DNA from: Candidatus Shapirobacteria bacterium GW2011_GWF2_37_20 | GTDB taxonomy: Bacteria; Patescibacteriota; Microgenomatia; UBA12405 | DNA length: 64,000 nt | NCBI GenBank assembly: GCA_000989305.1 | Contig: LBTB01000004.1 | Span: 12,897 to 76,896 of the forward strand | Reading direction: 5' to 3' | Part shown: one piece after another, positions 7,789 to 55,428 of the stretch | How positions within the stretch are numbered: the stretch's first letter is position 1 | How the letters are laid out: each line of letters begins with the position of its first letter | The notes under the pieces: model-generated | What the model was told of the DNA's origin: nothing | Databases searched by the model: none | Seen by the model: the letters and a program-made list of their open reading frames with translations, nothing else | Program-made: the position numbers and the translations under genes

Positions 7789-8604
7789 ATGAGGAATTGG
7801 AAAAGAGCTTGGCTAGTAACAACGCTAATTGTTTTTAGTGCTGGAATTGCTTGGATGTTTGAGGGAAATCAAAAACAAGTTAATATTGGTGGTGTTGTGT
7901 TACCAAAGCCAACTATTATTGAAAATAAATTAAAAATTGCAGTGATGGCGGATATTCACAACGACGAAGAGGAATTAAGAATAATGCTGAAGAAAGCCAA
8001 GGGCAACGGAGTTGAAATGGTGGTGCTGGCTGGTGATTTAACTAATAATGGGAAAACAAGTGAGCTGATTAAGATAAAGGAGGTTTTGGATGAATCAGGG
8101 GTGAAATATGCGGCTGTGCCTGGAAATCATGAGTATTATATTGACGAATTTGTAAAAATATTTGGAAAAAATTACCAGAGTATAAGATTGGGAGAAGTGA
8201 AGTTAATTTTGGTGGATAATAGCTACTGGAAAGGCTTGGATGAGGTGCATAAAAAATGGTTAGAGGGTGAGGTGGGTGAGTGTAGGGTGCTGATTTGTGT
8301 CGCAGTGATGCATAAGCCCTTAAATAATTTGTTTTCGAGCCATGTAATGGGTGAGAATAATGATAAGGCAACGGCAGAAGCATTATGGATGAGAGAATTA
8401 TTAATAACTTTCGGAGTCAGGCAAATTGAAGCGGGACATTTACATTATGCGAGCTCGTATGAGCTCGAAGGAATAAGAACGGATATAGTGGGGGCGGTTT
8501 CCAGGGAGAGAAATAATCAAAGTCCCAGGTATACTGAATTAATGATCGGTAGAGATTTAATAGAGAGAGTTGTGGTGGAGGAAACAGATGGTATTGGGAA
8601 TTGA
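7789..8604 (+). CDS. Calcineurin-like metallophosphoesterase with N-terminal TM helix
   Basis: DIHNDEE, GDLTNNG and GNHEY metallophosphatase motifs. Confidence 0.8.
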   Translation: MRNWKRAWLVTTLIVFSAGIAWMFEGNQKQVNIGGVVLPKPTIIENKLKIAVMADIHNDEEELRIMLKKAKGNGVEMVVLAGDLTNNGKTSELIKIKEVLDESGVKYAAVPGNHEYYIDEFVKIFGKNYQSIRLGEVKLILVDNSYWKGLDEVHKKWLEGEVGECRVLICVAVMHKPLNNLFSSHVMGENNDKATAEALWMRELLITFGVRQIEAGHLHYASSYELEGIRTDIVGAVSRERNNQSPRYTELMIGRDLIERVVVEETDGIGN

Positions 8605-9021
8605 TCCAGGGTTGGAAAATACAGGGTGGGGGGTAGTGGAGAATAATAAGTTGGTGGAATGTGGAGTAATTTTAACTACTAATAAGGATAAAAGTGAAGA
8701 TAGGTTGGAAAAAATTTTTGAAGAAATACAGAAAATTATTAAAAAATATAAAGTGGATGAGGTGGCAATGGAAAGTTTATTTTTTGCCAAAAATGTCAGA
8801 AGTGCGATGACGGTGGCGGAGGCGATAGGGGTGATAAACCAATTTTTGAATACACACCGCTACAGATAAAAATGGCTTTGGTTGGGTATGGGCGGGCGGA
8901 GAAAGAACAGGTGGAGTTGATGGTGAGGGATTGTTTGGGTCTTGAAGAACCAATAACACCCGGCCACGCCTCGGATGCGGTGGCAGCAGCTTTGACGCAT
9001 GAGTTTACAATGAGGCTATAA
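8588..9021 (+). CDS. ruvC: Holliday junction resolvase RuvC, interrupted by a -1 frame discontinuity near 8843-8850 (pseudogene, frameshift or indel)
   Basis: N-terminal part [17 protein letters not shown] reads in one frame up to 8869. The C-terminal part [22 protein letters not shown]...[11 protein letters not shown] continues in another frame up to 9021. The junction lies at a T5 run; a sixth T would restore one ORF. Confidence 0.7.
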
Positions 9022-9065
9022 CCAGTTGATTTGTAATATATATTATGGGTGAGATATAATTTGTT

Positions 9066-10061
9066 ATGGCAGCCTATGAAAAGGAAAAATTGTATAAGGA
9101 ATATCAGAAAAGAAAGGAATCACTTGAAAAATTAAAGGAATCGGTGGTTACCGATATCAGTAGTCTATTAAAGAGTAGGGGTATTGTGGTGAATACCGTG
9201 AAAGGAAGGGTTAAGGATTTTGAAAGTTTTTATCAGAAGATCGAGAGATTAGCGGAATCTGGAGCCTTGTTCGATTCTCCTTGTGATGAAATTCAGGACC
9301 TCGTTGGAGTTCGAATTGTATTATTGTTTGTTAGTGATTTGGATAAGGTTGAATCAATGTTGGGGTCTGTTTTTAAGGTAAAATCAAAAAAAAGATTTAG
9401 TGAAAATATGCCAGATAATCAGTTTGGATATCAGTCGGATCACTATGTTTTAATGTATGGAAACAAGGTAAGGGGGCCTCAATATGGTGAGGTAAAAGAT
9501 ATTAATTTTGAATTACAGGTTCGAACTGTATTGATGGATGCTTGGGACTCTGTTTCTCATGAATTAGACTATAAGAACGATATTCCGATACCATCAAACA
9601 TGAGAAGGGTTTTTTATGGATTAAGTGGTCTTTTTGTGGTTGCTGATCAACAATTTCAACAAATGAACGAATTAATAATAAAGAATAGAAAAGGTAAAAA
9701 GGTGATTGGAAGACCGATTGATTTATTGGAAAGAGAGATTAATTTAGATACTTTAATGGCATATGGTGAATATAAGTTTCAAGATCGGTTTGTAAAGAAG
9801 GATAAAATAAAAAGTGGAGTTGATAAATACTATTTTGAGTTAGCGAAAGAAATTGAACAGCTAAGAAAATACAATTCGATAGCTGATATTGATGAAATTG
9901 TTGATAAGCGTATCTCCGAGGTTTATGCAAAAGAAAAAAAAGAACATGGAGGGGGAACGGTCTTTTTTACGGTAATAGGATTGATTAGGGTGGCTTTGAC
10001 CATGGAGGATCCTGATTATGCATTACTTTTGAAAAATAAGGCTGTGCACACTAAAGAATAG
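9066..10061 (+). CDS. RelA/SpoT-domain small alarmone synthetase-like protein with an extra C-terminal domain of about 95 aa
   Basis: Alignable by eye to RelQ/RelP. Motifs: GRVKDFESF, DLVGVRIV, GYQSDHYV, ELQVRTVLMDAWDSVSHELDYK. Total length 331 aa versus about 210-230 aa for typical SAS proteins. Confidence 0.75.
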   Translation: MAAYEKEKLYKEYQKRKESLEKLKESVVTDISSLLKSRGIVVNTVKGRVKDFESFYQKIERLAESGALFDSPCDEIQDLVGVRIVLLFVSDLDKVESMLGSVFKVKSKKRFSENMPDNQFGYQSDHYVLMYGNKVRGPQYGEVKDINFELQVRTVLMDAWDSVSHELDYKNDIPIPSNMRRVFYGLSGLFVVADQQFQQMNELIIKNRKGKKVIGRPIDLLEREINLDTLMAYGEYKFQDRFVKKDKIKSGVDKYYFELAKEIEQLRKYNSIADIDEIVDKRISEVYAKEKKEHGGGTVFFTVIGLIRVALTMEDPDYALLLKNKAVHTKE

Positions 10062-10104
10062 TGTTCGGCTTTTGTTCGGTCGGGGAAAATGTTATGATGA
10101 GTTT

Positions 10105-10671
10105 ATGATTTCGAGTTTAAAGGGGATGGTTGATCGAGTATGGGGAAATTATATCGAGGTAGAAGTAGGTGGTGTGGGATATTTGGTATGGGTGGGGAGA
10201 AGAAATTATACTGAGGGACAAGAGGTAAAGATTTTTACTTATATGGCAGTATCAGAAAATGATATGGCTTTGTATGGTTTTGAAAATTTTGAAGATTTGG
10301 ATTTATTTAAAATGCTAATTACAGTGTCGGGGGTGGGGCCAAAATCAGCAGCTCAGATTTTAGAGCAGTGTAAGGGAGTGGAAATAATTAAAGCAATTGG
10401 AGATGCCGATACAAGTTTTTTTGAAAAAATAAAGGGAGTGGGAAAAAAGACGGCTCAAAGAATTATTGTGGATTTAAAATCAAAAATCGGGGGCTTAGGA
10501 GAATTAAATTTAAGAGACGAGTCTCCACTGCTCGAAGATGATGTGGTGTTGAGTTTGAGACAGTTGGGATTTGAGAGAAAAGAAATCGAAAATGTAATTA
10601 ATAAAATGCCCATTGAACTAGAGATTCTTGAAGATAAAGTTAGTTGGTGTTTGCAAAACCTAGGACGATAA
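10105..10671 (+). CDS. ruvA: Holliday junction DNA helicase RuvA
   Basis: GVGYLV, LYGF and GVGPKSA motifs plus a C-terminal domain. An upstream alternative start exists at 10072. Confidence 0.85.
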   Translation: MISSLKGMVDRVWGNYIEVEVGGVGYLVWVGRRNYTEGQEVKIFTYMAVSENDMALYGFENFEDLDLFKMLITVSGVGPKSAAQILEQCKGVEIIKAIGDADTSFFEKIKGVGKKTAQRIIVDLKSKIGGLGELNLRDESPLLEDDVVLSLRQLGFERKEIENVINKMPIELEILEDKVSWCLQNLGR

Positions 10672-11631
10672 ATGACGGATAAGAATTTGGATCCAAAATT
10701 AAAAAGTGAGGACAAGGAAATTGAACTGTCACTCCGCCCCAGAAAACTGGCAGAGTTTATTGGACAAAAGAAGTTAAAAGATCAGTTGGGAGTGTTTATT
10801 AAGGCAGCTAAGGAAAGAGAAGAGGCCTTAGATCATATTTTGTTTTATGGTCCTCCAGGGTTGGGAAAAACAACTTTAGCAATGTTGTTAGCTCTGGAAA
10901 TGGAATCGAATATAAAAATTACTTCTGGGCCTGCTTTGACTAGGGCTGGAGATTTGGCTTCGATTCTGACTTCATTGAAAAAAGGAGATGTTTTGTTTAT
11001 AGATGAGATTCACCGGTTGAATAAAATCGTTGAGGAAACGCTTTATAGCGCCATGGAGGATTATGTTTTGGACATAGTGTTAGGGAAAGGACCGTCAGCC
11101 AGATCTGTGAGACTGAAATTACAGAAATTTACAATTGTCGGAGCGACGACCCGAATTGGATTAATTTCTGGGCCAATGAGAGATCGTTTCGGAATTGTCC
11201 AGCAAATTGATTTTTATGAAGATATTAATTTGGCAGAAATTGTGATGAGGACAGCGAAATTTTTGAAAGTGAGAATTGACAGGGAGGCGGCAGAGGAAAT
11301 TGCCAGGAGGTCTAGAGGGACACCAAGAATTGCCAATAGGCTTTTGAAGAGAGTCAGGGATTACGCTCAGGTGGGTGGTGATTCTTTAATCACTGTCGGG
11401 GAAGCAAAGATGGCATTGGAGAAATTGGGAGTAGATGAGCTAGGTTTATCTGATGCGGATAGGAAGTATTTGGATGTGGTCAAAAAACAATATGGTGGGG
11501 GGCCGGTGGGAGTGGAAAATATTGCAGCAGCATTGACTGAGGATGTGGAGACTATTACGGATGTTTATGAACCGTTTTTGATGAAGAAGGGATTAGTGAA
11601 GAGGACACCGAGGGGAAGGGTAAGTGGGTGA
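10672..11631 (+). CDS. ruvB: Holliday junction DNA helicase RuvB
   Basis: [11 protein letters not shown] Walker A and an AAA+ fold. Signature motifs along 319 aa. Confidence 0.95.
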
Positions 11632-11636
11632 TATAA

Positions 11637-11954
11637 TTGGGCATGCCTGGAAAAATTACCACAGTTGAGGGGATAAGTGTTAGTGTTGACCTTTCAAAAA
11701 TTTGTGAAAATTGTGGTGCTTATAGAGGTGAACTGGAAATAGTGGCAAGAAGGTTGTTTCCGAATAATCATATGGGAAGTGGGGTGGCTGTAATAGAGTG
11801 TTTACCTGGTGGAGACGAAGAAGGTAGAACACGGAGATTAAATATCAAAGGATCCATTGATGGAAAATATTTTGAATCAATGAATGATTTAAAAGATTGG
11901 AGTGTGAGGCTGGTTCATTGTGGTCAGAAACCAAAAAAGGCAGCTAGAAGTTAA
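11637..11954 (+). CDS. Hypothetical protein
   Basis: ORF only. Cys pairs CENCG...HCG. No recognisable family. Confidence 0.4.
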   Translation: MGMPGKITTVEGISVSVDLSKICENCGAYRGELEIVARRLFPNNHMGSGVAVIECLPGGDEEGRTRRLNIKGSIDGKYFESMNDLKDWSVRLVHCGQKPKKAARS

Positions 11955-11988
11955 TCTAACCGCCTTTAAGGCAAAGTAGGAGGGAATA

Positions 11989-12246
11989 TTATTCCGCTTG
12001 GATACCAAGTAGCCAGAGAACAGCTTCCTTGCGGTAGCGACGATCACCGCGAGCATTGATGCGGATGGCGGGAAGTTTACCCCGTTTACCCCAACGCTTT
12101 ATCGTGAGTTTAGAAACACGTAGCAAATCGGCGACTTCGGCAACCGTTAAAAGGTCGGGAAGATTGTCGATACTGATACCATTAACTTTTTTTGGGGGGG
12201 ATTTTTGATTCACAAGCTTATCTTGTGTTAGGTTTTGATCATCCAT
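11989..12246 (-). CDS. Excisionase-family helix-turn-helix DNA-binding protein
   Basis: LLTVAEVADLLRVSKLTIKRW...G.LPAIRI..RGDRRY matches the excisionase/MerR-type HTH pattern. Local GC is clearly above the flanking genes. Confidence 0.7.
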   Translation of the reverse strand: MDDQNLTQDKLVNQKSPPKKVNGISIDNLPDLLTVAEVADLLRVSKLTIKRWGKRGKLPAIRINARGDRRYRKEAVLWLLGIQAE

Positions 12247-12362
12247 TTTGTGGCTCCTCGTGTATCAAAAGAACATTTAACTATAATCATTAAAACACAA
12301 AGCATATAAGTAGGTCAAGATATCAAAAAAAGAAAAATGAAAAAATGTTGTAAAATAAATAA

Positions 12363-13358
12363 ATGATCGACAACAAAATTGCCTTTTTTGGGGTGAAAAG
12401 TTGGGAGAGACCAATTATTGAAAGGGAAATAATTAATTTAGACGTTTTCGGGGTGGGAATTTTCGAAGAAGAGTTGCAGGATAATTTAGAATTAGCGAAA
12501 CAGTACGATATTGTTTCGATTTTTATCTATTCGAAAGCAGATAAAGAGGTTTTAGACAAGTTACCGAATTTGAAGATGATTGCAACCCGATCAACTGGTG
12601 TTGATCATATAGATATTGATGAGTGTAAGAAAAGAAAAGTTGTAGTCGCAAATGTGCCGGTATATGGATCTAACACAGTGGCGGAATATGCTTTTGCCTT
12701 AATTCTGGCGGTAGCAAAGAAGGTAGTGGAAGCACATCAAGCAGTAGAGGAAGATGAGTTTAGTCCGGAGGGATTGACAGGAATTGATCTTTTCGGAAAA
12801 ACATTGGGAATTGTGGGATTGGGAAAAATCGGGGCTAATGTGGCTAAGATGGCCAGAGGTTTTGGAATGAAAGTTGTGGCGGTGGAGAAAAATCCGGATT
12901 TAAAAATAGTTAAAAAATATAAAGTGAAGCTGGTTGACCTGGAAACCCTATTGAAGGAGTCGGATGTGGTGACGCTTCATGTTCCAGCCTCAAAGGAGAC
13001 TTATCATTTAATTAATCGAAGTAATATCAAGCTGTTGAAGGAGGGAAGTATTTTAGTAAACACCTCCCGGGGAGCAGTGGTGGAAAGTGAATCGATGATT
13101 TGGGCTTTAAATAAGGGAATATTAAGGGGAGTTGGGTTGGATGTAGTAGAAGAAGAGGATAAGGTTGAAAGCATGTCCTTGGTGATGAGCCAAAGACCAA
13201 CCAAGGAAGATTTGCAAAATGTATTGAGTTATCACATGTTGAGGGATAGGGAAGACGTAGTGTTTACGCCACACAATGCTTTTAACACAGAAGAAGCAAT
13301 TGAAAGAATAATAAAAACAACGATTGAGAATATAAAAGAATTTTGTAAAAAAAATTAG
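12363..13358 (+). CDS. D-isomer-specific 2-hydroxyacid dehydrogenase (NAD-binding)
   Basis: GLGKIGANVAKMARGFGMKV Rossmann motif, plus catalytic-domain and NAD-domain architecture. Confidence 0.8.
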   Translation: MIDNKIAFFGVKSWERPIIEREIINLDVFGVGIFEEELQDNLELAKQYDIVSIFIYSKADKEVLDKLPNLKMIATRSTGVDHIDIDECKKRKVVVANVPVYGSNTVAEYAFALILAVAKKVVEAHQAVEEDEFSPEGLTGIDLFGKTLGIVGLGKIGANVAKMARGFGMKVVAVEKNPDLKIVKKYKVKLVDLETLLKESDVVTLHVPASKETYHLINRSNIKLLKEGSILVNTSRGAVVESESMIWALNKGILRGVGLDVVEEEDKVESMSLVMSQRPTKEDLQNVLSYHMLRDREDVVFTPHNAFNTEEAIERIIKTTIENIKEFCKKN

Positions 13359-13370
13359 TTATAATCTGTT

Positions 13371-14423
13371 ATGAAAGCAGTAATAATATGCGGTGGGGTG
13401 GGTAGTAAAATGTGGCCGGAAAGCCGCGCCAGTTCACCAAAACAGTTTTTACCACTCATCGGCGAGAAATCACTATTCCAATTGAACTGGGAGGCGCTAA
13501 GACTGAAATTTTCCCCGGAAGAAATATTTTTGCAGACAAATGCGGTTCAGGCAGAAATTGCTAAGAAGCAAGTTTCGGAAATTTTGCCCGACAATGTTTT
13601 TATTGAACCGGAAATGAGAAATCAAGGGCCGGCGACCGGATTTGCAGCAGCATCTCTGATGAAAAAAGGTTTTGGAGATGAGGCGTTTATGCTGGTACAA
13701 GCAGATGTGATGAGAAAACCGGAAGAAAAATTTATAGAAATGTTGGAAGTGATGGGGACTTTAGCAGAATCAACAGAAAATTACATAACGGGTGGGATTG
13801 CTCCGGAAAATATTGTTAGAGGGGTTGATTATTTAGTAAAAGGAGAGTTGGTAAAAGAGGAAAAAGGAGTTAAGGTGTATCGGGTGGCGGATTATATTGA
13901 CAGAGCAGAGGAAGAGAAAATTAAACAGTATTTAGGTTCAGATAAGCTGTTAATTCACGCTAATCACACGACAATGACACCAAATAATTTAATGGAAATG
14001 TATAAAAAATACAGGATGGATTGGTATGAACCCCTGATGAGTATTGTTAATGGAGGAGATGTTCCAACTGAATATGCCAAGATGCCAAAGGCGGGAATCG
14101 AAGAGGTAACAAAACAAGTTTATACAAAAGGGGAGGCGCTGGTGGCCGAATTACCTTTTGAGTGGATTGATTTTGGGACTTGGGAGAGCCTGTCGAAGTA
14201 TCTGGTATCTAAAAATTTGTATTCTTCTGATAGTAAAACAATAGAGTTAGATAGTACTAATAATTTTGTGAGGGCAAACAAGACGGTGGCATTAATTGGA
14301 GTCAATGATTTGATAGTTATTGATAAAAACGATGCTCTTTTGATTTGTAAAAAGGAGATGACGGGGAAGGTGGGAGAGGTGGTAGATAAATTGAAAGCGG
14401 AAAATAAAGTGGAATTGTTGTAA
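13371..14423 (+). CDS. Sugar-phosphate nucleotidyltransferase (mannose-1-phosphate guanylyltransferase-like)
   Basis: N-terminal MKAVIICGGVGSKMWP nucleotidyltransferase motif. Length 350 aa. Confidence 0.7.
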   Translation: MKAVIICGGVGSKMWPESRASSPKQFLPLIGEKSLFQLNWEALRLKFSPEEIFLQTNAVQAEIAKKQVSEILPDNVFIEPEMRNQGPATGFAAASLMKKGFGDEAFMLVQADVMRKPEEKFIEMLEVMGTLAESTENYITGGIAPENIVRGVDYLVKGELVKEEKGVKVYRVADYIDRAEEEKIKQYLGSDKLLIHANHTTMTPNNLMEMYKKYRMDWYEPLMSIVNGGDVPTEYAKMPKAGIEEVTKQVYTKGEALVAELPFEWIDFGTWESLSKYLVSKNLYSSDSKTIELDSTNNFVRANKTVALIGVNDLIVIDKNDALLICKKEMTGKVGEVVDKLKAENKVELL

Positions 14424-14427
14424 AAAT

Positions 14428-14850
14428 ATGACAGACGAGAAGCTGGTAAAATTTAATCGTACTGGTGAGAATATTCCGGTAACTTTTATTGAAACAGCCG
14501 AAGTAACAAAGGGTGTCAGATGTGATGTTTATCGGTTTCTAGAGGATGAGACAAGAGATTTGGGAGTAATTTATGTTGAGCCAGGATGTAAAACGCCGTT
14601 GCAAAAAGTATTGGAAGGTGAAAAAACAATTGAGGGTTTTTATATGGGTAGAGGTATTTTGACGATTATAAAAATTAATGGAGAAAAAGAGACTTACGAA
14701 GTTGATGACAAATCGGGAAAAGACTTTTTTCAAGAAGTAAGGGTTGGGGAGACAATGCAGTGGGAGGCGACACCAGACTCAATTCTGATTGCCTATGAGG
14801 TGTGTTATCCACCATATAAGCCCGGAAGATATGAGGATTTAGTTGAATAG
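14428..14850 (+). CDS. Cupin-like small protein (possibly the separate PMI-type cupin partner of the upstream nucleotidyltransferase)
   Basis: Size and position fit; the family is bifunctional in other organisms. Weak motif support. Confidence 0.4.
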   Translation: MTDEKLVKFNRTGENIPVTFIETAEVTKGVRCDVYRFLEDETRDLGVIYVEPGCKTPLQKVLEGEKTIEGFYMGRGILTIIKINGEKETYEVDDKSGKDFFQEVRVGETMQWEATPDSILIAYEVCYPPYKPGRYEDLVE

Positions 14851-14900
14851 CCTAGATTATAAGTGCAAAATTTGATCGATTTTGTATCAATAAATACTAA

Positions 14901-14930
14901 TTGACAGACATTGAGAGGGGCGAGTACAAT
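14901..14930 (+). promoter_or_regulatory. Sigma70-like promoter TTGACA-18-TACAAT
   Basis: Perfect -35 hexamer and a near-consensus -10. Same extended motif TTGACAGACA as the promoter at 23453. Confidence 0.5.
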
Positions 14931-15055
14931 CGGGGCGATTATAAATTATCAGTCAAATCATATAACTGCTAAAATCTGCTCAGCAAGCAATATGAAATTA
15001 TTATAAATTATTATTCTGTCCACATGGATATTTTCAAAGCAGGTGGAACACAATT

Positions 15056-15385
15056 ATGTCAAATTGGTCTGAATTTAAAACGTATACAGATTTAAGTCTT
15101 ATTTTTATCTTAAATAGTATTGTAGGGGTATATCTGATTACATCAGGAGGAAAAGTTATTTATGTTGGAAAAGCCGATTACAGTCTCAAAAATAGATTGT
15201 CAGATCATTTAAAATTTTCAACAGAAAGTAATAAGGTGCTTGTTAATTATCTTATGGCTGGTGGGTGTAGATTTTCCTTATTAGAGGTTCCGCAAAAGAT
15301 TGATAGAGATAGAATCGAAAAGGAATTAATACAATTATATAGTCCTGTTTGCAATAAACAGAATAATCCATTTCCAGTTCGATAA
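15056..15385 (+). CDS. GIY-YIG nuclease-domain protein (single domain, 109 aa)
   Basis: GVYLITSGGKVIYVGKA ... RLSDHL matches the GIY-(10/11)-YIG...R...H pattern. Confidence 0.7.
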   Translation: MSNWSEFKTYTDLSLIFILNSIVGVYLITSGGKVIYVGKADYSLKNRLSDHLKFSTESNKVLVNYLMAGGCRFSLLEVPQKIDRDRIEKELIQLYSPVCNKQNNPFPVR

Positions 15386-15386
15386 C

Positions 15387-15415
15387 AAAAACCCCCTCGG
15401 AAGAGGGGGTTTAAA
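15387..15415. terminator. Bidirectional intrinsic terminator
   Basis: Hairpin CCCCCTC-GGAA-GAGGGGG flanked by A-run and T-run. Sits between the convergent GIY-YIG gene and rplL. Confidence 0.75.
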
Positions 15416-15431
15416 GTTTAAAATAAAAGAA

Positions 15432-15784
15432 TTATTTTAATTCAACGGTTGCACCAGCGGCTTCGAGTTTAGTCTTAGCTTCGGCAGCAGCGTCTTTTTT
15501 CATAGTGCTTTAGCTTCTTTCAAACCCAATTCTGGTTTGAATTCACGGACAGCTTTGATGACGGCGATTTTATTGGTGCCGGCGTTGGTAACGATGACAT
15601 CAAATTCGCTTTTTTCTTCAACAGCAGCAGCGGCAGGAGCACCGGCGGCAGCAGCGGCAGGAGCGGCGGACATGGCAACAGCTTTAACATCGAACTTTTC
15701 TTCTAGAGCTTTGACCAATTCGGAGAGTTCAAGCACCGAAAGTTGAGAGATTTGGTCGAGGATGGTTTCTAATTTTTTATCCAT
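15432..15784 (-). CDS. rplL: Ribosomal protein L7/L12, C-terminus interrupted by a frame discontinuity
   Basis: Main ORF 15500-15784 encodes NTD, Ala/Pro hinge and CTD up to GLKEAKAL, then hits TGA. The conserved end [22 protein letters not shown] is in another frame (15432-15503). About 13 aa of the CTD appear absent. Confidence 0.8.
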
Positions 15785-15822
15785 TTTTTTATTTAAATTT
15801 GTAAAAATTTATATATAAACTA

Positions 15823-16341
15823 TTAATTGGTCGCTTGTTTATCAGCCAGAGCTTTTAGGGTTAAAACTAATTGCTGTTGATTGAAACGCATGGCGTAAAC
15901 CAAACGTTGCAGAGGATTTTTAAGTCCCCCAATAAATTGAGCGATAAGAGTAGATTTGGAAGGCAGAGATAAAAACTTCTTTAATTCATCCAAAGAAAGT
16001 AGCTTTTTGTCATAAATTCCGAACTTAAAACTGGTTTTTTCCTTGTCTTTATTGACAGTGTCAATTTCTTTTAAGGGGGCGATTTCATCGGTATCACAAT
16101 AAACAACGGCGGTGGGGCCGGTTAGAGTTTCGGGCAAGTCGAGTTCCATTTTATTAAGGGCACGGGTGATGAGGGTATTTTTGATAACCTCAATAGAGCC
16201 ACCAGCATCTTTGACTTTGGCACGGAGAGTACCAGCATCACCAGCAGTGAGACCCTGGTATTGAATAAAAGCAGCAGATTTGGCTTCAGAGAGTCTTTTA
16301 ACGACTTCGTCAACTTTTTCAATTTTTTGTATTTTTGCCAT
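15823..16341 (-). CDS. rplJ: Ribosomal protein L10
   Basis: MAKIQKIEKVDEVV...GLTAGDAGTLR typical of L10. Start trimmed from the track ORF to the MAKIQ Met. Confidence 0.85.
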   Translation of the reverse strand: MAKIQKIEKVDEVVKRLSEAKSAAFIQYQGLTAGDAGTLRAKVKDAGGSIEVIKNTLITRALNKMELDLPETLTGPTAVVYCDTDEIAPLKEIDTVNKDKEKTSFKFGIYDKKLLSLDELKKFLSLPSKSTLIAQFIGGLKNPLQRLVYAMRFNQQQLVLTLKALADKQATN

Positions 16342-17885: not shown

Positions 17886-17892
17886 TCCGAGC

Positions 17893-44992: not shown

Positions 44993-44997
44993 TATAT

Positions 44998-46520: not shown

Positions 46521-46524
46521 GGCA

Positions 46525-46745: not shown

Positions 46746-46746
46746 A

Positions 46747-46926: not shown

Positions 46927-46961
46927 GGAGCTATTTTAATCGATGTAGCGGGAATTAGCAA

Positions 46962-47789
46962 TTAATTGATAAGTTGATTATCTAAAATGCTTTTGGCGAC
47001 CGTGTCGCAGAATAACTCACTACCAAGAGGGGAGGGGTGGAGATGATCGGTAGAACTAATAAGAAGTTCTGAGCCATTTTGACCAAAAAGACTGGGGTGA
47101 AAAGTATCGGCGAGGGCAAAGTTATTTTTGTTAGCAAAATTGACTAGATTTTGCAGATAAAGTTTAATGGTGTTGGTTTTTTCAATTTTTTGAAAAGCAG
47201 AGAAATGAACGTCCTTAATCCCGTTGCCAAAAGTAACAGAGTTGGGAGCAATGGTAGAGGCAAGAAGTATTTTGGTGTGGGGCGATTCCTTTTTAATGGT
47301 GCTGGTCAGTTTCTGAAGAGCCTGACTTTGACGGTCGATGCCGGCCTGAGAGTTGCCAAAATTATTGTAGGCAAAGGATTCGATGAGAATTATGTCTGCA
47401 TTTTGAGATAAAATCGACGGGTTGTTTTGACCCAGGTAGGAGGTTGTTTCAGTTAAACGTTTGAGGGCAGATTCGATATTAGTGGAACCATAGCCATATT
47501 TTAAGATGTTAAATTTGGTAAAAGGGAAATATTTTTGAAAGGATTGTTGACAGATATCTTTGGAAAGTGTGTCAATCATTGAATCACCCAAGAGTACCAG
47601 ATCGATTATATTGCCATCACCGCCAATAGGAGGGATATAAGAGGGAACAATAGTTTTTAGACCAAGAACATTTGGTTTGGGGGTGGGGGTGGTTTCGTTG
47701 ACAGATATTATTGGAGTAGAGGGAGTGTAGCTACTGGGGTGATAGGCCTGAAGCAATTGATAATAGAGGGGGAAGAAAAATAGGGGCAT
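46962..47789 (-). CDS. SGNH/GDSL hydrolase, secreted
   Basis: LVLLGDSMIDTL GDS(L) motif near the N-terminus of the mature domain. A signal-like N-terminus is present. Confidence 0.6.
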   Translation of the reverse strand: MPLFFFPLYYQLLQAYHPSSYTPSTPIISVNETTPTPKPNVLGLKTIVPSYIPPIGGDGNIIDLVLLGDSMIDTLSKDICQQSFQKYFPFTKFNILKYGYGSTNIESALKRLTETTSYLGQNNPSILSQNADIILIESFAYNNFGNSQAGIDRQSQALQKLTSTIKKESPHTKILLASTIAPNSVTFGNGIKDVHFSAFQKIEKTNTIKLYLQNLVNFANKNNFALADTFHPSLFGQNGSELLISSTDHLHPSPLGSELFCDTVAKSILDNQLIN

Positions 47790-48082
47790 CAGAGGTCGCG
47801 GTATTTTTTAATTTGTCTTTCGAGTTGATCTTCTAAATCAATGAGGGCTGATTCAAGGAACTTGTGTGTAGTTTCGGAGAAGATTTTTTCTTTGCCTGGG
47901 AGATATATGTCAAAACGGAGATGAACGTTTTTTAATTTGTCGTATTCAATTCGAAGGGTGGCTGTTTTCATTTCCGGGGCGAAGGTGGTGAGGAATTTTT
48001 CTAATTTTTGGTTGATTTTCTCATCGACCAATTTTTTAACTGCATCTGTGAGTTCAAAGTTGTCGCCGGTGATTTGAATATT
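47789..48082 (-). CDS. hpf: Ribosome hibernation promoting factor (short HPF/RaiA)
   Basis: MNIQITGDNFELTDAVKKLVDEKI and the overall S30AE fold pattern. Confidence 0.85.
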   Translation of the reverse strand, partial: NIQITGDNFELTDAVKKLVDEKINQKLEKFLTTFAPEMKTATLRIEYDKLKNVHLRFDIYLPGKEKIFSETTHKFLESALIDLEDQLERQIKKYRDL

Positions 48083-48134
48083 CATAGTAATTAAGGATAA
48101 CATTTATAAATAATTGATATAATCAGTGTGTTTT

Positions 48135-48216
48135 GGAGGGTGGGCAGGACGGTAATGCGCTAGTTTTGAAAACTAGTGTCCGTAAGGACTAACAGGTTCA
48201 ACCCCTGTACCCTCCG
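48135..48216 (+). tRNA. tRNA-Ser (anticodon TGA), long variable arm
   Basis: GGAGGGT/ACCCTCC acceptor. 3-bp D stem. Anticodon loop TTTGAAA. Variable arm TGTCCGTAAGGACTA. G73 discriminator. Confidence 0.8.
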
Positions 48217-48245
48217 CTTTGGATTAAATATTTAAGAAAAATATT

Positions 48246-48449
48246 ATGCGAATTGAAACTTTGAAATGTCCGTTAAACACAAAAAATAATCACAGAGGTC
48301 CACTGATAAGTGAGGGAATATGTGGTTTTGGTTTGCATTACAGTGATGAAGCGCCCCATACAATAACAGCAGAGGATATAAGATTATTTGAAAAATTGGC
48401 ACCTTTACCAAAACCAGAAAGAAAAAGTAGAAAGGTAGAGAAAAAATGA
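48246..48449 (+). CDS. Hypothetical small protein between two tRNA genes
   Basis: ORF only. Confidence 0.3.
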   Translation: MRIETLKCPLNTKNNHRGPLISEGICGFGLHYSDEAPHTITAEDIRLFEKLAPLPKPERKSRKVEKK

Positions 48450-48521
48450 GCCCGGAATGAAATTCGAATTCATGACCTTCCCCTTACCAAGGGGATGCTC
48501 TACCAACTGAGCTATCCGGGC
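48449..48521 (-). tRNA. tRNA-Thr (anticodon GGT)
   Basis: GCCCGGA/TCCGGGC acceptor. Anticodon loop TTGGTAA. T-loop TTCGAAT. Confidence 0.8.
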
Positions 48522-48621
48522 GACGAGGTTATTTTACCAAATTACGGGTATTTTTGTCTTGAGAAATAAAATCAATCCTCCTCTTGTTTTTTGAGGATAC
48601 TCCTACTAAAATAGTGGGAGT

Positions 48622-49353
48622 ATGTTGCAAATAAAAAAAATAAGCGTTTCGGTGGAAGGAAAGCCAATTTTGGCAGATATTGGTTTAGAGTTAAATGCGG
48701 GAGAAGTGATGGCTTTAATGGGTCCAAACGGAAGTGGAAAATCGAGTTTGGCCTATGCTTTGGCTGGACATCCAAAATATGCCGTAGATAAGGGAAAAAT
48801 GTTTTTTGATAAAAAAGAAATTACAGAATTGACTCCAAATGAAAGAGCAATGATGGGTCTATTTTTAGCAAATCAAGCGCCAGTGGCAATTCCGGGCCTT
48901 GGGATAAAAAGTTTTTTATGGCAGATCTACAAGAAGTTTGAAAATGAAAAAAGAATGGATTTGGTTAAGTTTAGAAATTGGTTAGATGATGAGGCTGAAA
49001 AATTACAGTTGAAAAATGGGTTATTGGAGAGAGGTCTGAATGATGGATTTTCTGGTGGAGAAAGAAAAAAAATGGAGGTTTTACAAATGTTGGTGTCAAA
49101 GCCAAAATATATAATATTGGACGAAATTGATTCTGGTCTTGACGTGGACGCCTTAAAAATAATTGCCCTGAGGGTTAAAAAAATGGTCAAAGAGGATAAG
49201 GTTGGGGTGTTGATAATTACTCACTACAGTCGGATTTTAAATTATTTAAAAGCAGATAAAGTAGTGATAATTGAAAAAGGAAAAGTGAAAGAAATGGGCG
49301 GAATGGAACTGGTAAAGAAAATTGAAGATAAAGGTTTTGAAGAAAAAAAATAA
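48622..49353 (+). CDS. sufC: Fe-S cluster assembly ATPase SufC
   Basis: [11 protein letters not shown] Walker A, ABC signature FSGGERKK, and the SufC C-terminus. Confidence 0.9.
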
Positions 49354-50780
49354 TGAGTCGTTTTGCCCCAATAAAAGAGGAAAGTAAAAAGGAAAAATGG
49401 GAAAAAAGCCCATATGAGTATGGTTTCTCTAGTCCGGAAAAGCACATGTTTAAGGCCAAGAGAGGTTTAAACGAAGAAATTGTAAGGATGATTTCGACAA
49501 TGAAATCTGAGGAAGAAAAAATGCGGAATTTTAGACTGGAGTCTTACAAAATTTTTTTGGAAAAGAAAATGCCAACTTGGGGGGCAGACCTATCAACAAT
49601 AGATTTCAACAATATTTTTTATTATGTGAAAGCGACGAAAAGTGAAGGTAAAAAATGGGGAGATGTACCCAAAGAAATAAAAGACACATATGATAAATTG
49701 GGAATTCCTCAGGCAGAAAAGGAGTATTTGGGAGGAGTAAAAGCACAATATGAATCGGAAGTAATTTACGGCTCTTTACTTAAAAAATTACGTGATAAGG
49801 GCATAATTTTTTGTGGAATGGACGAGGCTTTGGTTAAATACCCAGATCTAGTGTGGTCACATTTTGGCAAAATTGTACCAAAAGGGGACAATAAATTTGC
49901 GGCTTTAAACAGCGCGGTGTGGTCGGGAGGATCTTTTATTTACGTGCCAAAGGGAGTAAAAGTTGATTTACCGTTACAGGCATATTTCAGAATAAACACC
50001 CAAAACATGGGACAATTTGAAAGGACTTTAATTATAGTTGATGAAGGGGCTTTTGTTCATTATGTGGAAGGCTGTACAGCGCCAATTTATACGACTGATT
50101 CATTGCATTCAGCTGTGGTGGAAATTTGGGTGGCTAAAAATGCCAGGTGTCGTTATACGACAATTCAAAACTGGTCAACTAATGTTTACAATCTGGTGAC
50201 AAAGAGGGCGTGGGTAGAGGAAAAGGGGATCATGGAATGGGTAGATGGAAATTTAGGAAGTAAGATAACCATGAAATATCCAAGTGTGATTTTGGCGGGA
50301 AAGGGGGCTCATGGAGAAATTTTATCGGTGGCAGTGGCGGGGAAAGGTCAACATCAAGACGCTGGAGGAAAATGTATTCATTTAGCTGAAAACACAACAA
50401 GTCGGATTATTTCCAAATCGATTAGTTTAAATGGAGGTAGAAGTAGCTATCGGGGTATGATTCAAATGAATAAGGGGGCAAAAAATGCTAGATCTAAGGT
50501 AGTTTGTGATGCTTTAATTTTAGATAATGAATCGAGGTCGGACACATATCCTGTTAATAAAATTATGGAATCAGAAGTGACTTTGGAACACGAGGCCACA
50601 GTTAGCAAAATTGGGGAGGAACAATTGTTTTATTTAATGTCGCGGGGTTTTGAAGAACACGAAGCGGAGGCAATGGTGGTTAATGGTTTCATTGAACCAA
50701 TTGTTAAAGAGTTGCCAATGGAATATAGTGTGGAACTAAATCGACTAATTAGTTTACAAATGGAGGGAAGTGTTGGATGA
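49353..50780 (+). CDS. sufB: Fe-S cluster assembly protein SufB
   Basis: Length 475 aa and conserved SufB core motifs. Confidence 0.85.
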
Positions 50781-51205
50781 GATATTTTGATGTATTAGAT
50801 AGGATGGGACAATCTAAAGATATTAAGAAATTTTTGGTGGTTAAAAGTGGTGAAAGTATTGATATTGAAACTGTTATGCAATTTAAAGCTCCAAAAACAC
50901 GAGGCAATACTTTAATTAAAGCGGTAGTAATGCCGGGGGGAAAGTTAAATTTAAAAGGAGTCATAAAAATTGATAAAGGAGCAGAACTGGTCGAGGCATT
51001 TTTACGTCAGTCGGTGTTATTAATTGGAGAAAATTCGATGGCCACGGCAATTCCTGAATTAGAAATAGAATCAAATGAAGTTAGGGCCTCACATGCGGCG
51101 GCAATTGGGAGAGTTGACGAGGAACAATTGTTTTATTTAATGTCGCGTGGTTTAAGTCAGGATGAGGCAGTAAAATCAATTATAAAAGCCTTTTTAAATG
51201 AATAA
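50777..51205 (+). CDS. SufD-like protein (short, C-terminal beta-helix region only)
   Basis: Ends with [17 protein letters not shown], shared with the SufB/SufD C-terminus. Confidence 0.6.
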
Positions 51206-52427
51206 ATATAAAAAATATTTTCCAATTTTTAAAAATAGTCCGGATTTGGTCTATTTGGATAGTGCGGCGACAAGCTTAAAACCAAAAAGGGTGCTAGATA
51301 AAATGATGGAATATTACACTAAATATAGTGCCAATATTCATCGGGGTTTATATCCATTGTCGGAAAAGGCGAGTGAAGAATATGAGGGAGTGAGAGAGCT
51401 AGTAGCTAATTTTATTGGAGCAAAAAATAGAGAAGAAATTATTTTTACCAGTGGAACAACGGCAGGGATTAATTTGGTATCCAGGTCATGGGGGGAAGAA
51501 AACATATTTAAGGGTGATGAGATAGTGGCAACAGAAATGGAACATCATTCAAATTTAGTGCCTTGGCAGGAATTAGCCAAAAGAAGAAAGGCAAAATTAA
51601 GGCTGATAGAAGTGGGTGATGATTTTAAATTAAAAATAGATAATTTGGAAAAAATTATTGGAAGAAAAACAAAAATATTAGCTTTGACGGAGATGAGTAA
51701 TGTCTTAGGGACTATTAATCCAGTCAAAGAAATTATTAAAAAGGCAAAAGAAATAAACCCCAAAATAGTAATTTTAGTAGACGGGGCTCAAGCGGTGGCC
51801 CGTATGTCGGTAAAGGTAGCTGATTTGGGAGCTGACTTTTATGTTTTTTCAGGACACAAGATTTATGGACCAAGCGGAGTGGGGGTATTGTGGGTTAAAA
51901 AAGGAAGATTTTCCGAAATGAAAGCTTCTATTTTTGGAGGGGGGATGATAAGGGAAGTGTCTTTTGAGGAAAGTAGTTATCAAGGAGGTTTTGAGGCTTA
52001 TGAGGCAGGAACACCAGCGATTGGGGAAGTAATTGGGTTGGGAGAGGCAATAAAATTTGTGGAAAAAATAGGCTGGAAGGAGATGAGATGGCATGAAAGT
52101 GAACTATGTGAGTACGCATGGAGTAAATTGTCGGAGATACCTGAAGTAAAAATTATCGGACCAAAGAGAGAGAGGGGGGGAGTTATTTCCATAATTTTGT
52201 CAGGAAAAGGAATGCCGGCGTCACATGATTTGGGGGATATTTTGGGAAGGAAGTATAATGTTTGTCTGAGAACTGGATATCATTGTGCGATGCCTTTGCA
52301 TAAAAAATTTGGTTTAAATTCGGGAACAAGCCGAATTAGTTTGGGGATATATAATGACAAAGGAGATATTGATATTTTAGTCAAAGGTATCAAGGGAGCC
52401 ATAGAAATTTTTAACAAAAATGGATGA
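51198..52427 (+). CDS. sufS: Cysteine desulfurase SufS
   Basis: PLP-lysine motif FSGHKIYGPSGVG and active-site Cys region RTGYHCA. Confidence 0.9.
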   Translation: MNKYKKYFPIFKNSPDLVYLDSAATSLKPKRVLDKMMEYYTKYSANIHRGLYPLSEKASEEYEGVRELVANFIGAKNREEIIFTSGTTAGINLVSRSWGEENIFKGDEIVATEMEHHSNLVPWQELAKRRKAKLRLIEVGDDFKLKIDNLEKIIGRKTKILALTEMSNVLGTINPVKEIIKKAKEINPKIVILVDGAQAVARMSVKVADLGADFYVFSGHKIYGPSGVGVLWVKKGRFSEMKASIFGGGMIREVSFEESSYQGGFEAYEAGTPAIGEVIGLGEAIKFVEKIGWKEMRWHESELCEYAWSKLSEIPEVKIIGPKRERGGVISIILSGKGMPASHDLGDILGRKYNVCLRTGYHCAMPLHKKFGLNSGTSRISLGIYNDKGDIDILVKGIKGAIEIFNKNG

Positions 52428-52773
52428 TTTATATCGGGAAATAATTTTGGATCATTATAAAAATCCTGAAAATATGGGTAAGCTTGATAGTGGAATTGAG
52501 GTGGAGGAAATAAATCTTTTATGTGGTGACAAAATTAAAATAGGAGTAAGGATTAAAAAAGGAGTGATAAGTGAAGCAAAATTTACTGGTGGAGGCTGTG
52601 CCATATCAATGGCGGCAGTAGATATTTTATTGTCAATGGTTAAGGGAAAGAAACTGAGTGAGGTTAAAAAGATGAGTGGAAAAGAAATAGAAAAGAAAAT
52701 GGGGGTAAAATTAACTCCCAATAGAAAAAAATGTGCCTATTTAGGGCTTGAGGTGTTAAAAAAGATAAAATAG
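52420..52773 (+). CDS. sufU: SufU/IscU-like Fe-S scaffold
   Basis: LYREIILDHYKNP...GGCAISMAA pattern. Confidence 0.8.
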   Translation: MDDLYREIILDHYKNPENMGKLDSGIEVEEINLLCGDKIKIGVRIKKGVISEAKFTGGGCAISMAAVDILLSMVKGKKLSEVKKMSGKEIEKKMGVKLTPNRKKCAYLGLEVLKKIK

Positions 52774-52789
52774 GGGTTAGAAGAGTGGT

Positions 52790-53053
52790 GTGGAAGATAA
52801 GGGCTCGAACATAAATGATATTTTGATAGAATTGGCTATGGGTTATGAGGTAGACATAAATAATTTTCAACGATTGGGAAAATTTATAGATGTCGACGGG
52901 AAAGAATATGTAATTTTGATTGAGAATGATATTCCTAAGGAGAGAGTAACAGAAATTAGTCAGCAGTATCTTAACCAAAAAATCAATATTAGGGGGCATG
53001 TTTACGTTCCTAAAAGAGAAGTAGTCGAAAAACTAAAGATGGAGTTGGAATAA
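52790..53053 (+). CDS. Hypothetical protein
   Basis: ORF only. Confidence 0.35.
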   Translation: MEDKGSNINDILIELAMGYEVDINNFQRLGKFIDVDGKEYVILIENDIPKERVTEISQQYLNQKINIRGHVYVPKREVVEKLKMELE

Positions 53054-53068
53054 AGATATTATTGAATG

Positions 53069-53141
53069 AGCCTGAAGTCAGATTCGGACTGACGACCTGC
53101 TGTTTACAAAACAGCTGCTCTACCAACTGAGCTATTCAGGC
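53069..53141 (-). tRNA. tRNA-Thr (anticodon TGT)
   Basis: GCCTGAA/TTCAGGC acceptor. Anticodon loop TTTGTAA. T-loop TCCGAAT. Confidence 0.8.
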
Positions 53142-53166
53142 ATGATGGAGTATTATAGAATAGAAC

Positions 53167-54290
53167 ATGGTAAAAAAGAAAATCTTGGTGATGACAGATC
53201 ACATGCCCTGGGGTCATCGGTCAATCGCCAGAGCTATCTATGGTTTTTTAAAAACTAAAGAGAAAGAAGAAAATTTTGAAGTTTATTACGCTGAAGTGAA
53301 GTCCGAGATGGGAATTTCAAATGATATATATCAATTCAGTTATCGATATTTACCTTTGTCGAGCCGGATTGGAAGATGGATGTCTTATTTGCCTCAAATC
53401 AGAAAAGTAATCGAAGAGTTATCGTTTACTAATTTGTCGGCACCTAAAAAAGTGGTTCAAAAAATAAAGCCAGACTTGGTGATTTCAACCTATTGGTTTC
53501 ATTCCCATTCTTTGGCCGGGTGGAAGGACAGGGGAGATGTAAATTTCAAATTATGGACGGTGGTGGCAGATCCGTGGACGGTGTTGCCGGTGTCATATAA
53601 TTCAAAAATCGATATGCATCTGGTTTATGATCAGATGGGGGTTGATGTTGGGATGAAAGAATGTGGTATCCCAAAAAATAAAATATTAGAAACAGGCTGG
53701 TGGACAAGGCCGGAGATGTTTGGAAAGTTTGATAGAAAAGAAGCCAGAAAAAAACTAGGTTTTAGTGATGACAGACAGGTGGTATTTGTTGGGGGCGGGA
53801 GTTTGGGAACGAATTCTTTAACGAAACTTTTACCAGCTCTAATGTTAATTAAGGGTAAGGTTGGCTTTATTTTTAATACCGGGACGGATAAATTGGCCTA
53901 CAATCTAGTCGAGCAATATACAAGATTGTATAAAAAATTAAACAAGCAGGGAAATGTAATCATTAAAAACCTGGGTTGGATTGAGAACATGGGAGAAGTA
54001 TTAGCCGGGGTAGATATTGTTTTTGGAAAAGCAGGTCCAAATTTTTTGTTTGATGGGCAATTACCCATATTGGAGGGCAAGAAGACGGAAACATAGACTT
54101 GATTAAAAAGAAGGGTTTAGGTTGGGTTAAAGAAAAGGGAACAGAGGCGGCTGATTTTTTATTAGCTTATCTTGAGGACCCAAAAAGATATCAGGATAAA
54201 TTTAAGAAAAATATTGAGACTGAAGCAAGAAAAAACGAAAAGAGTATGGGGATAATACTTGGGGAAATAAAGAGAGAAATGAGAATTTGA
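53167..54290 (+). CDS. GT28/MGDG-synthase (UgtP)-like glycosyltransferase, copy A; two frames joined by a -1 junction near 54064-54069
   Basis: Frame 1 (53167-54096) ends ...FGKAGPNFLFDGQLPI-LEGKKTET*. The conserved continuation GGQEDGNIDLIKKKGLGWVKEK... is in the -1 frame (track ORF 54099-54290). GQE(E/D)GN is the expected next motif of this family. Confidence 0.7.
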
Positions 54291-54307
54291 GTATTATAGA
54301 ATAGGGT

Positions 54308-55428
54308 GTGACTAAAAAGAAAATCTTGGTAATGACAGATCATATGCCCTGGGGTCACCGGTCAATAGCTAGAGCGATTTATGGGTTTTTAAAAACCAAA
54401 GAGAAAGAAGAAAATTTTGAAGTTTATTACGCGGAAGTAAGAGCAAAATTAGGATTAATTCATGAGATGTATATGCTTAGTTATCGGTATTTACCAGTAT
54501 CCAATAAGTTATCCAGATGGATATCGTACTCGCCGGGTTTGAGAAAATTAATTGAAAAAATGTCTCAGGGGAATGTGGTGGCGCCAAGGAAAATAGTTGA
54601 AAAAATTAAACCCGATTTGGTGATTTCAGCCTATTGGTTTCATTCCCATTCTTTGGCCAGGTGGCGTGATAAAGAAAAACAGAAATTTAAATTATGGACG
54701 GCTGTTAGTGACCCGTGGACTATTTTACCGATAGCATATAACTCTAAAATTGATTTGCATTTGGTTTATGACCGGAAAGGGGTGTATTTAGGAATGAAAG
54801 AATGTGGTTTAAAAAGGAATCAGATTTTAATAACAGGCTGGTGGACAAGACAGGAGATGTTTGGAAAGTTTGATAGAAAAGAAGCCAGAAAAAAACTAGG
54901 TTTTAACGATGGTAGGCCGGTGGTATTTTTTGGCGGAGGAAGTATGGGAACTTATTCGTTGGTAAGGTTGTTGCCGGCCTTGATGTTAATTAAAGACAAG
55001 GTAGGTCTAGTATTTAATACTGGGAAAGATAAAAAATCATATGACTTGGTGGAGCGGTACGTAAAGTCATATAAACGATTAAATAAAAAAGGAAACTTAA
55101 TCATTAAAAACCTGGGTTGGATTGAGAACATGGGAGAAGTATTAGCCGGGGTAGATATTGTTTTTGGAAAAGCAGGTCCAAATTTTTTGTTTGATGGGCA
55201 ATTACCCATAATGGGGGACAGGAGGATGGTAATATCAGATTGATAAAGAAGAAGGGTTTGGGATGGGTGAAGGAAAAAAGGGGAGAAGCGGTGAAATTTT
55301 TGCGGGACTATTTAAAAAGACCCAAACGGTATCAGAAAAAGTTTGAAAAAAGTATTGAGAATGAGGCGAAAAGAAACGAGAAAAGTATGGAGATAATCTC
55401 AAAAAGGGTAAAAGAAGAATTGAAGTAA
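54308..55428 (+). CDS. GT28/MGDG-synthase (UgtP)-like glycosyltransferase, copy B; same -1 junction near 55205-55210
   Basis: Tandem paralogue of copy A. Frame 1 ends ...GQLPI-MGDRRMVISD*. The -1 frame continues GGQEDGNIRLIKKKGLGWVKEK... (track ORF 55240-55428). Confidence 0.7.

Follow-up and report, generated by a model that had tools for sequence, protein, structure and literature searches.

The window analysed here is a 64,000-nt stretch of a deposited MAG of Candidatus Shapirobacteria (locus-tag prefix US46), and four of its genes are broken in frame: ruvC, rplL and two tandem genes referred to below as GT28 copies 1 and 2. Alignment with other assemblies of the same population reveals a short missing segment in each:

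ruvC, 8588..9021, + strand: 25-nt deletion of AAAGGTAGCGGCAAAGAATTTGGGA; junction between 8835 and 8836.
rplL (L7/L12), 15432..15784, - strand: 31-nt deletion, on the + strand CCAAGATCGGCGGGACAAGCATCAACCATAT; junction between 15507 and 15508.
GT28 copy 1 (MGDG_synth + Glyco_tran_28_C), 53167..54290, + strand: 25-nt deletion of TTGTGGCTTCTCAAAAACCATTTGT; junction between 54055 and 54056.
GT28 copy 2, tandem paralogue, 54308..55428, + strand: 25-nt deletion identical to that of copy 1; junction between 55196 and 55197.

In the window, ruvC is split into two ORFs (8588-8869 and 8872-9021), as are GT28 copy 1 (53167-54096 and 54099-54290) and GT28 copy 2 (54308-55243 and 55240-55428), while rplL meets a premature TGA at 15500-15502 and its conserved C-terminus runs on in a different frame to 15432. 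The alignment is ambiguous by 3 nt (AAA) at the ruvC junction and by 1 nt at the rplL junction, and the 31-nt rplL gap is exact in the alignment against the sister MAG US68/LBTX01. At four of four sites the downstream frame lies at +2 (equivalent to -1), so that a net addition of 1 nt is needed, and this common direction arises because every deletion length (25, 31, 25 and 25 nt) equals 1 mod 3. Thus, the four discontinuities described in the earlier note all exist, each with a net correction of +1 nt, but none is a single-nucleotide lesion. The note had also placed the ruvC break at a T5 run; the ruvC and GT28 junctions actually lie 8-10 nt upstream of the positions it gave.

With the missing segments restored, ruvC encodes a RuvC of 152 aa and rplL an L7/L12 of 127 aa, both identical to the sibling proteins, and the two GT28 copies become uninterrupted genes for 382 and 381 aa. 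In the sequence as deposited, by contrast, the ruvC fragments match positions 1-86 and 107-148 of the Pfam RuvC family, compared with 1-148 in the intact sibling, and of the 67 positions of the L12 C-terminal domain the window matches only 1-33, compared with 1-67 in the sibling; the Glyco_tran_28_C match is gone from the GT28 fragments, and only the intact forms span the Pfam models completely. The residues lost all belong to conserved domains, namely KVAAKNLG in RuvC, the stretch DMVDACPADLG in L12 and VVASQKPFV in GT28. The proposal that one nucleotide resolves each site therefore holds for the frame only: a single added nucleotide leaves 8-10 conserved residues absent from the protein.

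For each site, between four and eight independent assemblies of the same Rifle groundwater population, 99.6-100 % identical to the window, were available for comparison, assemblies of individual runs (Logan, ENA) being used as a proxy for reads. All of the siblings compared at a given site carry a single uninterrupted ORF there, and the intact allele was found in eight independent assemblies for ruvC, five for rplL, four for GT28 copy 1 and five for GT28 copy 2, including MEGAHIT/ENA, JGI and UBA assemblies as well as sister MAGs; the 25-nt segment of GT28 copy 1, for example, is present in DODT01, ERZ27254731, JGI and LBTX01. None of the four deletion junctions occurs in any fetched assembly, and each lesion is thus private to one assembly, as would be expected of a local assembly error. 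Moreover, an index of 153 billion gene positions has no record of either truncated product, the 94-aa L12 or the 93-aa RuvC. Since it also lacks the deformylase variant of the window itself, this index apparently does not include the window contig, and the negative result covers other assemblies only. A gapped pattern for the intact and deleted ruvC alleles, which does match the window and the fetched loci, gave no match in genome and metagenome contig collections, which evidently lack this population, and a literature search by accession number found nothing.

It might be supposed that the deposited sequence, left unchanged, still yields full-length RuvC, L7/L12 and GT28 through programmed -1 ribosomal frameshifting or some other form of recoding, and a real propensity for -1 events had indeed been suggested for these genes. 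In favour of this, the net frame offset is equal at all four sites, and the GT28 junctions are preceded, at a distance of 8-17 nt, by the canonical heptamers A AAT TTT and T TTT TTG; frames offset by -1 and an X XXY YYZ heptamer near the break are also what is seen in dnaX and the IS3-family transposases. However, the -1 frame after the GT28 heptamers reads TTT TTT GTT TGA and reaches a stop before the junction, the sole heptamer in rplL (G GGT TTG) leads to TAA, and no X XXY YYZ heptamer occurs in the part of ruvC that precedes the break, so that at no site does a slippery 0-frame heptamer open a -1 frame into the downstream ORF. In addition, the intact alleles contain the same heptamers and need no shift, and the sibling genes are uninterrupted in every other assembly; unlike in dnaX and IS3, the break is not conserved in close relatives. 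A shifted product would still lack the 8-10 conserved residues, is not colinear with the full-length family and has interrupted Pfam coverage. Recoding is therefore extremely unlikely. The earlier argument that a broken essential rplL speaks against pseudogenisation is sound, and the same observation points to an artefact rather than to recoding.

Deletion-biased assembly error, the other cause that had been considered, is supported as a type of cause, whereas the mechanism put forward for it, the undercalling of single bases in homopolymer runs of long reads, is not. Such undercalling would leave deletions of one or a few nucleotides within a run. A T5 run does lie 8 nt downstream of the ruvC junction, but it is identical in the window and its siblings, the lesions are 25-31 nt long and fall outside homopolymers, and the dataset consists of 150-bp Illumina reads (PMC4736985) assembled with IDBA-UD. 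Long-read undercalling accordingly has almost no chance of being the explanation.

The shared direction of the four breaks had been read as the sign of a systematic cause, for which it is weak evidence. The tandem GT28 copies share an identical block that contains the deletion (64 nt in ERZ27254731; in the window it extends further left, with matches to copy 1 at 55141 and 55171), and the two GT28 sites count as a single event, leaving three independent ones. The chance that three frame-breaking deletions fall in one residue class is about 1 in 4. Furthermore, the private deletions of the sister MAGs (20, 86, 88, 61, 128 and 33 nt) show no mod-3 preference.

These sister MAGs, US68 and US85, come from the same study and pipeline, and each has other private lesions. 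US68/LBTX01 carries a private 20-nt deletion in GT28 copy 1, and US85/LBUO01 has private deletions of 86 nt in murB, 88 nt in ruvC and 61 nt in ruvA, together with GT28 deletions of 128 and 33 nt that start from exactly the left breakpoints of the window, 54055 and 55196. The truncated GT28 products of the three MAGs consequently all differ (301, 293 and 280 aa), whereas the products in the JGI/ENA and UBA assemblies have 374 and 382 aa. None of the US46, US68 or US85 deletions was found in MEGAHIT and JGI contigs. Like lesions thus recur in assemblies of the same pipeline and are absent from those of other pipelines. Over about 30 kb of alignment, the window and LBUO01 differ by no real substitution and by nine indels of 8-128 nt; the sole listed mismatch sits where the alignment is ragged, at the 88-nt deletion of LBUO01 itself. 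Such a pattern fits local misassembly of short reads and not natural divergence. A 10-nt gene-truncating indel in fmt, at 57542, is present in LBUO01 and also in an unrelated Logan assembly.

A further possibility is that ruvC, rplL and both GT28 genes are truly inactivated in a subpopulation by microdeletions of 25-31 nt, the GT28 pair having been homogenised by gene conversion, and that this variant was sampled. The fmt indel looks real and recurrent in the population; being found in independent assemblies, it indicates that frame-breaking indels, at least this one, do segregate there, which leaves some room for real microdeletions in this organism. The left GT28 breakpoints common to LBUO01 and the window could in principle mark a real fragile site, and short frame-breaking deletions in otherwise conserved genes are known from the microdeletion pseudogenes of reduced and symbiotic genomes. 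Unlike such pseudogenes, however, the lesions are confined to one assembly while the others are intact, they strike an essential ribosomal protein whose C-terminal domain is halved, and four gene-killing deletions would have to fall within 57 kb essentially without accompanying substitutions. The nested GT28 deletions of 25, 33 and 128 nt with one common end resemble contig joins rather than alleles, and the private lesions of the same-pipeline sisters, with none in MEGAHIT and JGI assemblies, speak in the same direction. With junctions in none of the fetched assemblies, the alleles neither recur in independent samples nor show a natural mutation spectrum, and we consider this account very improbable. 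A little less probable again is the special case of a coexisting Shapirobacteria variant that has lost ruvC, rplL and both GT28 genes to real microdeletions, nested and with breakpoints that recur (two MAGs have left ends in common). If true, it would point to deletion by a site-specific process, or to a defective lineage kept by complementation within the population.

Taken together, the four discontinuities are very probably local errors of assembly or curation in one short-read MAG, US46, and the living organism almost certainly keeps ruvC, rplL and both GT28 genes intact. The samples are 150-bp Illumina reads, with IDBA-UD run per sample at a maxk of 100 (PMC4736985). The responsible step is probably the assembler itself or later scaffold repair, which would have joined across short stretches that had not been reconstructed, with the loss of 25, 31, 25 and 25 nt, and we infer that the consensus at the junctions lacks read support. 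The two GT28 lesions would represent one error made twice, because the block is identical in the tandem paralogues and neither reads nor k-mers can separate the copies.

Local assembly errors of this kind have been described for IDBA-UD as short stretches of missing or wrong consensus in otherwise correct scaffolds that break coding genes (Chen et al. 2020, Genome Res 30:315, PMC7111523), and samples of precisely this type often show them when assembled with IDBA-UD (PMC7111523). The lesions in US46 resemble them in these respects and in being private to one assembly, and the GT28 pair lies in a repeat of a length comparable to the largest k-mer. Two differences should be considered. The published errors are defined operationally by a lack of read support, whereas here they are judged from assemblies; and the ruvC and rplL sites have no explanatory repeat or variant. 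Repeat-mediated deletion or a de Bruijn shortcut was rejected for ruvC and rplL: neither deletion is flanked by a repeat, microhomology does not exceed 3 nt, and none of the repeated 14-mers has a bearing on the junctions. Hairpin-mediated skipping was rejected as well, since the intact regions, folded as DNA, do not outperform shuffled sequences (z = -0.96, +1.02 and +0.69), and inspection revealed no motif common to the deleted segments. There is thus no mechanical cause for the assembler to fail at exactly the ruvC and rplL sites, a point that counts against an assembly error. Artificial editing of the window was likewise discarded, since a truncated product equals a deposited GenBank protein (the 301-aa product of GT28 copy 1 is KKQ31541.1) and an independent MAG has the same GT28 left breakpoints.

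The practical value of these observations lies in quality control. In this region a short private deletion occurs about every 10-15 kb in US46, US68 and US85, and the truncated proteins are now in public databases, for example under KKQ31541.1, KKQ64897.1, KKQ50804.1 and KKQ63626.1. To infer from such records that this CPR lineage has lost RuvC, L7/L12 or glycolipid synthesis, or that it uses recoding, would be misleading. Where frameshifts run in the same direction, a nucleotide comparison with sibling assemblies should come first, because deletions of 1 mod 3 mimic single-base shifts.

A second type of error reported for IDBA-UD and CLC is the insertion of Ns where scaffolds are joined although their flanks overlap (PMC7111523). 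The window contains no N and its joins are seamless deletions, unlike these, but the sibling UBA assembly DODT01 has NN joins at which flanks are duplicated or absent, and one such join starts from 8834, at the ruvC junction. Assembly is evidently difficult at these places: at the GT28 sites, contigs of other assemblies (L012, L013, L014, L021 and L024) stop within 90 nt.

Four broken genes are present in the window, as found by ORF listing and direct reading alike, and the earlier note was also right that they share a direction: at all four sites, reading continues downstream of the break in a frame shifted by +2 (equivalent to -1) relative to the upstream one. What is missing from each gene, however, is not the single nucleotide proposed there but 25, 31, 25 and 25 nt, and because all of these lengths are 1 mod 3, each site seems to need just one added base. 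Two of the genes, the GT28 copies, stand in tandem and both encode MGDG_synth plus Glyco_tran_28_C proteins.

Broken genes of the window and the segments absent from them
ruvC: two ORF pieces, 8588-8869 and 8872-9021; 25 nt absent, AAAGGTAGCGGCAAAGAATTTGGGA, junction after 8835
rplL, minus strand: premature TGA at 15500-15502, the conserved protein end running on to 15432 in another frame; 31 nt absent, + strand CCAAGATCGGCGGGACAAGCATCAACCATAT, junction 15507/15508
GT28 copy 1: two ORF pieces, 53167-54096 and 54099-54290; 25 nt absent, TTGTGGCTTCTCAAAAACCATTTGT, junction after 54055
GT28 copy 2: two ORF pieces, 54308-55243 and 55240-55428; the same 25 nt as in copy 1 absent, junction after 55196

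The translations already hinted before any alignment that more than one base is missing, since they skip residues: RuvC passes from …AEAIGVI nearly at once to …FEYTP, and L12 from …LKEAK to …KKDAAAE, where members of these families have about 8-12 residues between the flanking stretches. The segments themselves were defined by comparison with sibling assemblies, found by exact-protein look-ups together with neighbouring genes. These yielded many contigs of the same organism (99.6-100 % identity to the window) from the NCBI MAGs LBTX01, LBUO01 and DODT01, a JGI metagenome, five ENA MEGAHIT assemblies and several Logan run assemblies. Gene calls in the siblings give 152 aa for RuvC, 127 aa for L7/L12 and 382/381 aa for the GT28 pair, or 374/369 aa where a later start codon is taken. 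In a whole-window nucleotide alignment against the sibling loci, the only window-specific indels over 1-57090 are these four. When the segments are re-inserted, all four genes become uninterrupted, RuvC and L7/L12 match the sibling proteins exactly, and the GT28 products reach 382 aa (copy 1) and 381 aa (copy 2). Moreover, Pfam confirms that the missing segments belong to conserved domains: the RuvC model is matched over 1-148 in the intact protein and over 1-86 and 107-148 in the window's fragments, the L12 C-terminal domain over 1-67 in the intact protein and 1-33 in the window, and the Glyco_tran_28_C match is wholly gone from the GT28 fragments. Per-site allele tests, with flanks of 20 nt on the left and 40 nt on the right, found the intact allele in eight independent assemblies for ruvC, five for rplL, four for GT28 copy 1 and five for copy 2, and none of the four deletion junctions in any fetched assembly.

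The suggestion of a real propensity for -1 events is not supported. Upstream of its break, the ruvC fragment has no X XXY YYZ heptamer. GT28 does have two, A AAT TTT and T TTT TTG, 8-17 nt upstream of the junction, but the -1 frame from them (TTT TTT GTT TGA) meets a stop ahead of the junction, and the intact alleles contain the same heptamers. rplL has a single heptamer, G GGT TTG, and a shift there runs into TAA in the -1 frame. Even a successful -1 shift would give proteins without 8-10 conserved residues. Nor does the shared direction reflect a systematic bias. The GT28 pair represents one event, so there are three independent frame-breaking events, which fall in one residue class by chance with a probability of about 0.25, and the six private deletions of the sister MAGs, with lengths of 20, 86, 88, 61, 128 and 33 nt, belong to classes 2, 2, 1, 1, 2 and 0, respectively.

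GenBank KKQ31541.1, with locus tag US46_C0004G0079 on an 84,531-nt contig of a Candidatus Shapirobacteria MAG, has exactly the sequence of the truncated GT28 copy 1 product (53191-54096, 301 aa, ending …FLFDGQLPILEGKKTET). The deletions therefore belong to the public record as it was deposited and are no later addition. The same population is represented by two sister MAGs, US68 (LBTX01) and US85 (LBUO01, including "GW2011_GWE1_38_10"), which, judging by their names and locus tags, come from the same Rifle groundwater study. Sequencing of the Rifle samples gave 150-bp paired Illumina reads, which were assembled sample by sample with IDBA-UD (mink 40, maxk 100, step 20) (PMC4736985). Thus, the long-read homopolymer undercalling offered as one cause does not apply.

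Both sister MAGs carry lesions of their own.

Private deletions in the sister MAGs, in window coordinates
US85 murB: 86 nt absent, 7440-7525 (LBUO01000015.1)
US85 ruvC: 88 nt absent, about 8651-8738 (LBUO01000015.1)
US85 ruvA: 61 nt absent, 10143-10203 (LBUO01000015.1)
US85 GT28 pair: 128 and 33 nt absent, 54056-54158 and 55197-55204 (LBUO01000002.1)
US68 GT28 copy 1: 20 nt absent at 53975

The five in US85 break murB, ruvC, ruvA and both GT28 copies, and those in GT28 have exactly the same left breakpoints as the window's own GT28 deletions (54055 and 55196). The truncated GT28 proteins differ among the three sister MAGs (301, 293 and 280 aa), and the protein is intact in the JGI/ENA and UBA assemblies. 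Nine indels of 8-128 nt separate the window from US85 over about 30 kb aligned, with no real substitution (the single listed mismatch falls where the alignment is ragged, at the 88-nt deletion of US85 itself), which does not look like natural divergence. The ruvC region is a trouble spot elsewhere too, with an NN join in DODT01 that starts at 8834, at the window's own junction, and the 88-nt US85 deletion about 100 nt upstream of it. Across the region, four loci of the UBA contig DODT01000014.1 have about 18 such joins, with flanks duplicated over 21-23 nt or partly missing, which break ruvC, ruvA, ruvB and a 2-hydroxyacid dehydrogenase gene and match the "Ns inserted despite overlap" error type of PMC7111523.

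The GT28 deletions lie within a block identical between the two paralogues. It spans 64 nt in ERZ27254731. In the haplotype of the window, copy 2 agrees with copy 1 at 55141 and 55171 as well, which extends the block further left and brings its length close to or beyond the largest assembler k-mer, 100; five other assemblies have contig ends within 90 nt of the GT28 sites. At both positions, copy 2 has A in the window and DODT01, as in copy 1, and G in ERZ27254731 and JGI, while LBTX01 has G at 55171. The longer block could be the result of gene conversion between the copies or of paralogue collapse in assembly.

The four deletions are almost certainly an assembly artefact, of a type already known, in a public MAG and no real biological feature, because the sister MAGs carry private lesions of the same kind, window and US85 differ by indels without substitutions, the GT28 deletions fall in a paralogue-identical block near or over the k-mer limit, the ruvC site is also troubled in DODT01 and US85, and rplL is essential. 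Loss of half the L12 C-terminal domain in a population abundant enough for repeated assembly is not credible. Assembly error, one of the two readings in the earlier note, was right in kind and wrong in mechanism, these being 25-31-nt deletions in Illumina data. Chen et al. describe exactly such errors and, in addition, N insertions in spite of overlapping flanks in IDBA-UD and CLC assemblies (PMC7111523). Neither the ruvC nor the rplL deletion is flanked by a direct repeat (microhomology of at most 3 nt and of 1 nt, respectively), and neither has a significant hairpin or a repeated 14-mer elsewhere within the window bearing on its junction. Unsupported regions were reportedly re-assembled automatically in the original study, a procedure that could produce short, seamless deletions. 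We nevertheless keep a small probability that at least one of the four is a real allele, since the population contains a real-looking indel in fmt (minus strand, 57306-58181). These 10 nt (TTATTTTTGC, 57542-57551) are present in the window, ERZ909591, ERZ909597 and Logan SRR1658472, and absent from US85 and the unrelated Logan assembly SRR29904084; a contig of SRR29904083 has the same short gene call (gene call only). The short allele reduces Fmt from 291 to 243 aa, with loss of Formyl_trans_C, and its recurrence in independent assemblies suggests that it may be a real polymorphism.

Other variants were seen along the window. The JGI contig (3300025000) lacks 21 nt directly after a RelA/SpoT-like gene (10061-10081, GTGTTCGGCTTTTGTTCGGTC, with a near-repeat of TGTTCGG) and a TAG triplet at 7836-7838, both probably natural length variants. 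Substitutions cluster at 59307-59343 in the deformylase gene (five differences, 6 bases, in 37 nt versus ERZ909597) and at 60055-60204 within a Wzy_C/TPR gene, 59652-61586 (9 differences, 10 bases, in 150 nt versus ERZ909591), each between identical flanks, a pattern suggestive of patches of strain-level recombination or of a variable surface-polymer gene. Directly downstream of the rplJ-rplL operon, a 109-aa ORF with weak GIY-YIG nuclease matches stands alone (15056-15385, + strand) and is conserved in all sibling assemblies. Finally, the + strand over 1-64000 has 16,522 G versus 7,883 C, an extremely strong and uniform skew (+0.35 overall, +0.22 to +0.46 in every 4-kb bin) that is independent of gene orientation, minus-strand genes being C-rich on their own coding strand. 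The entire window lies on a single replichore, in a genome whose strand asymmetry is unusually large.
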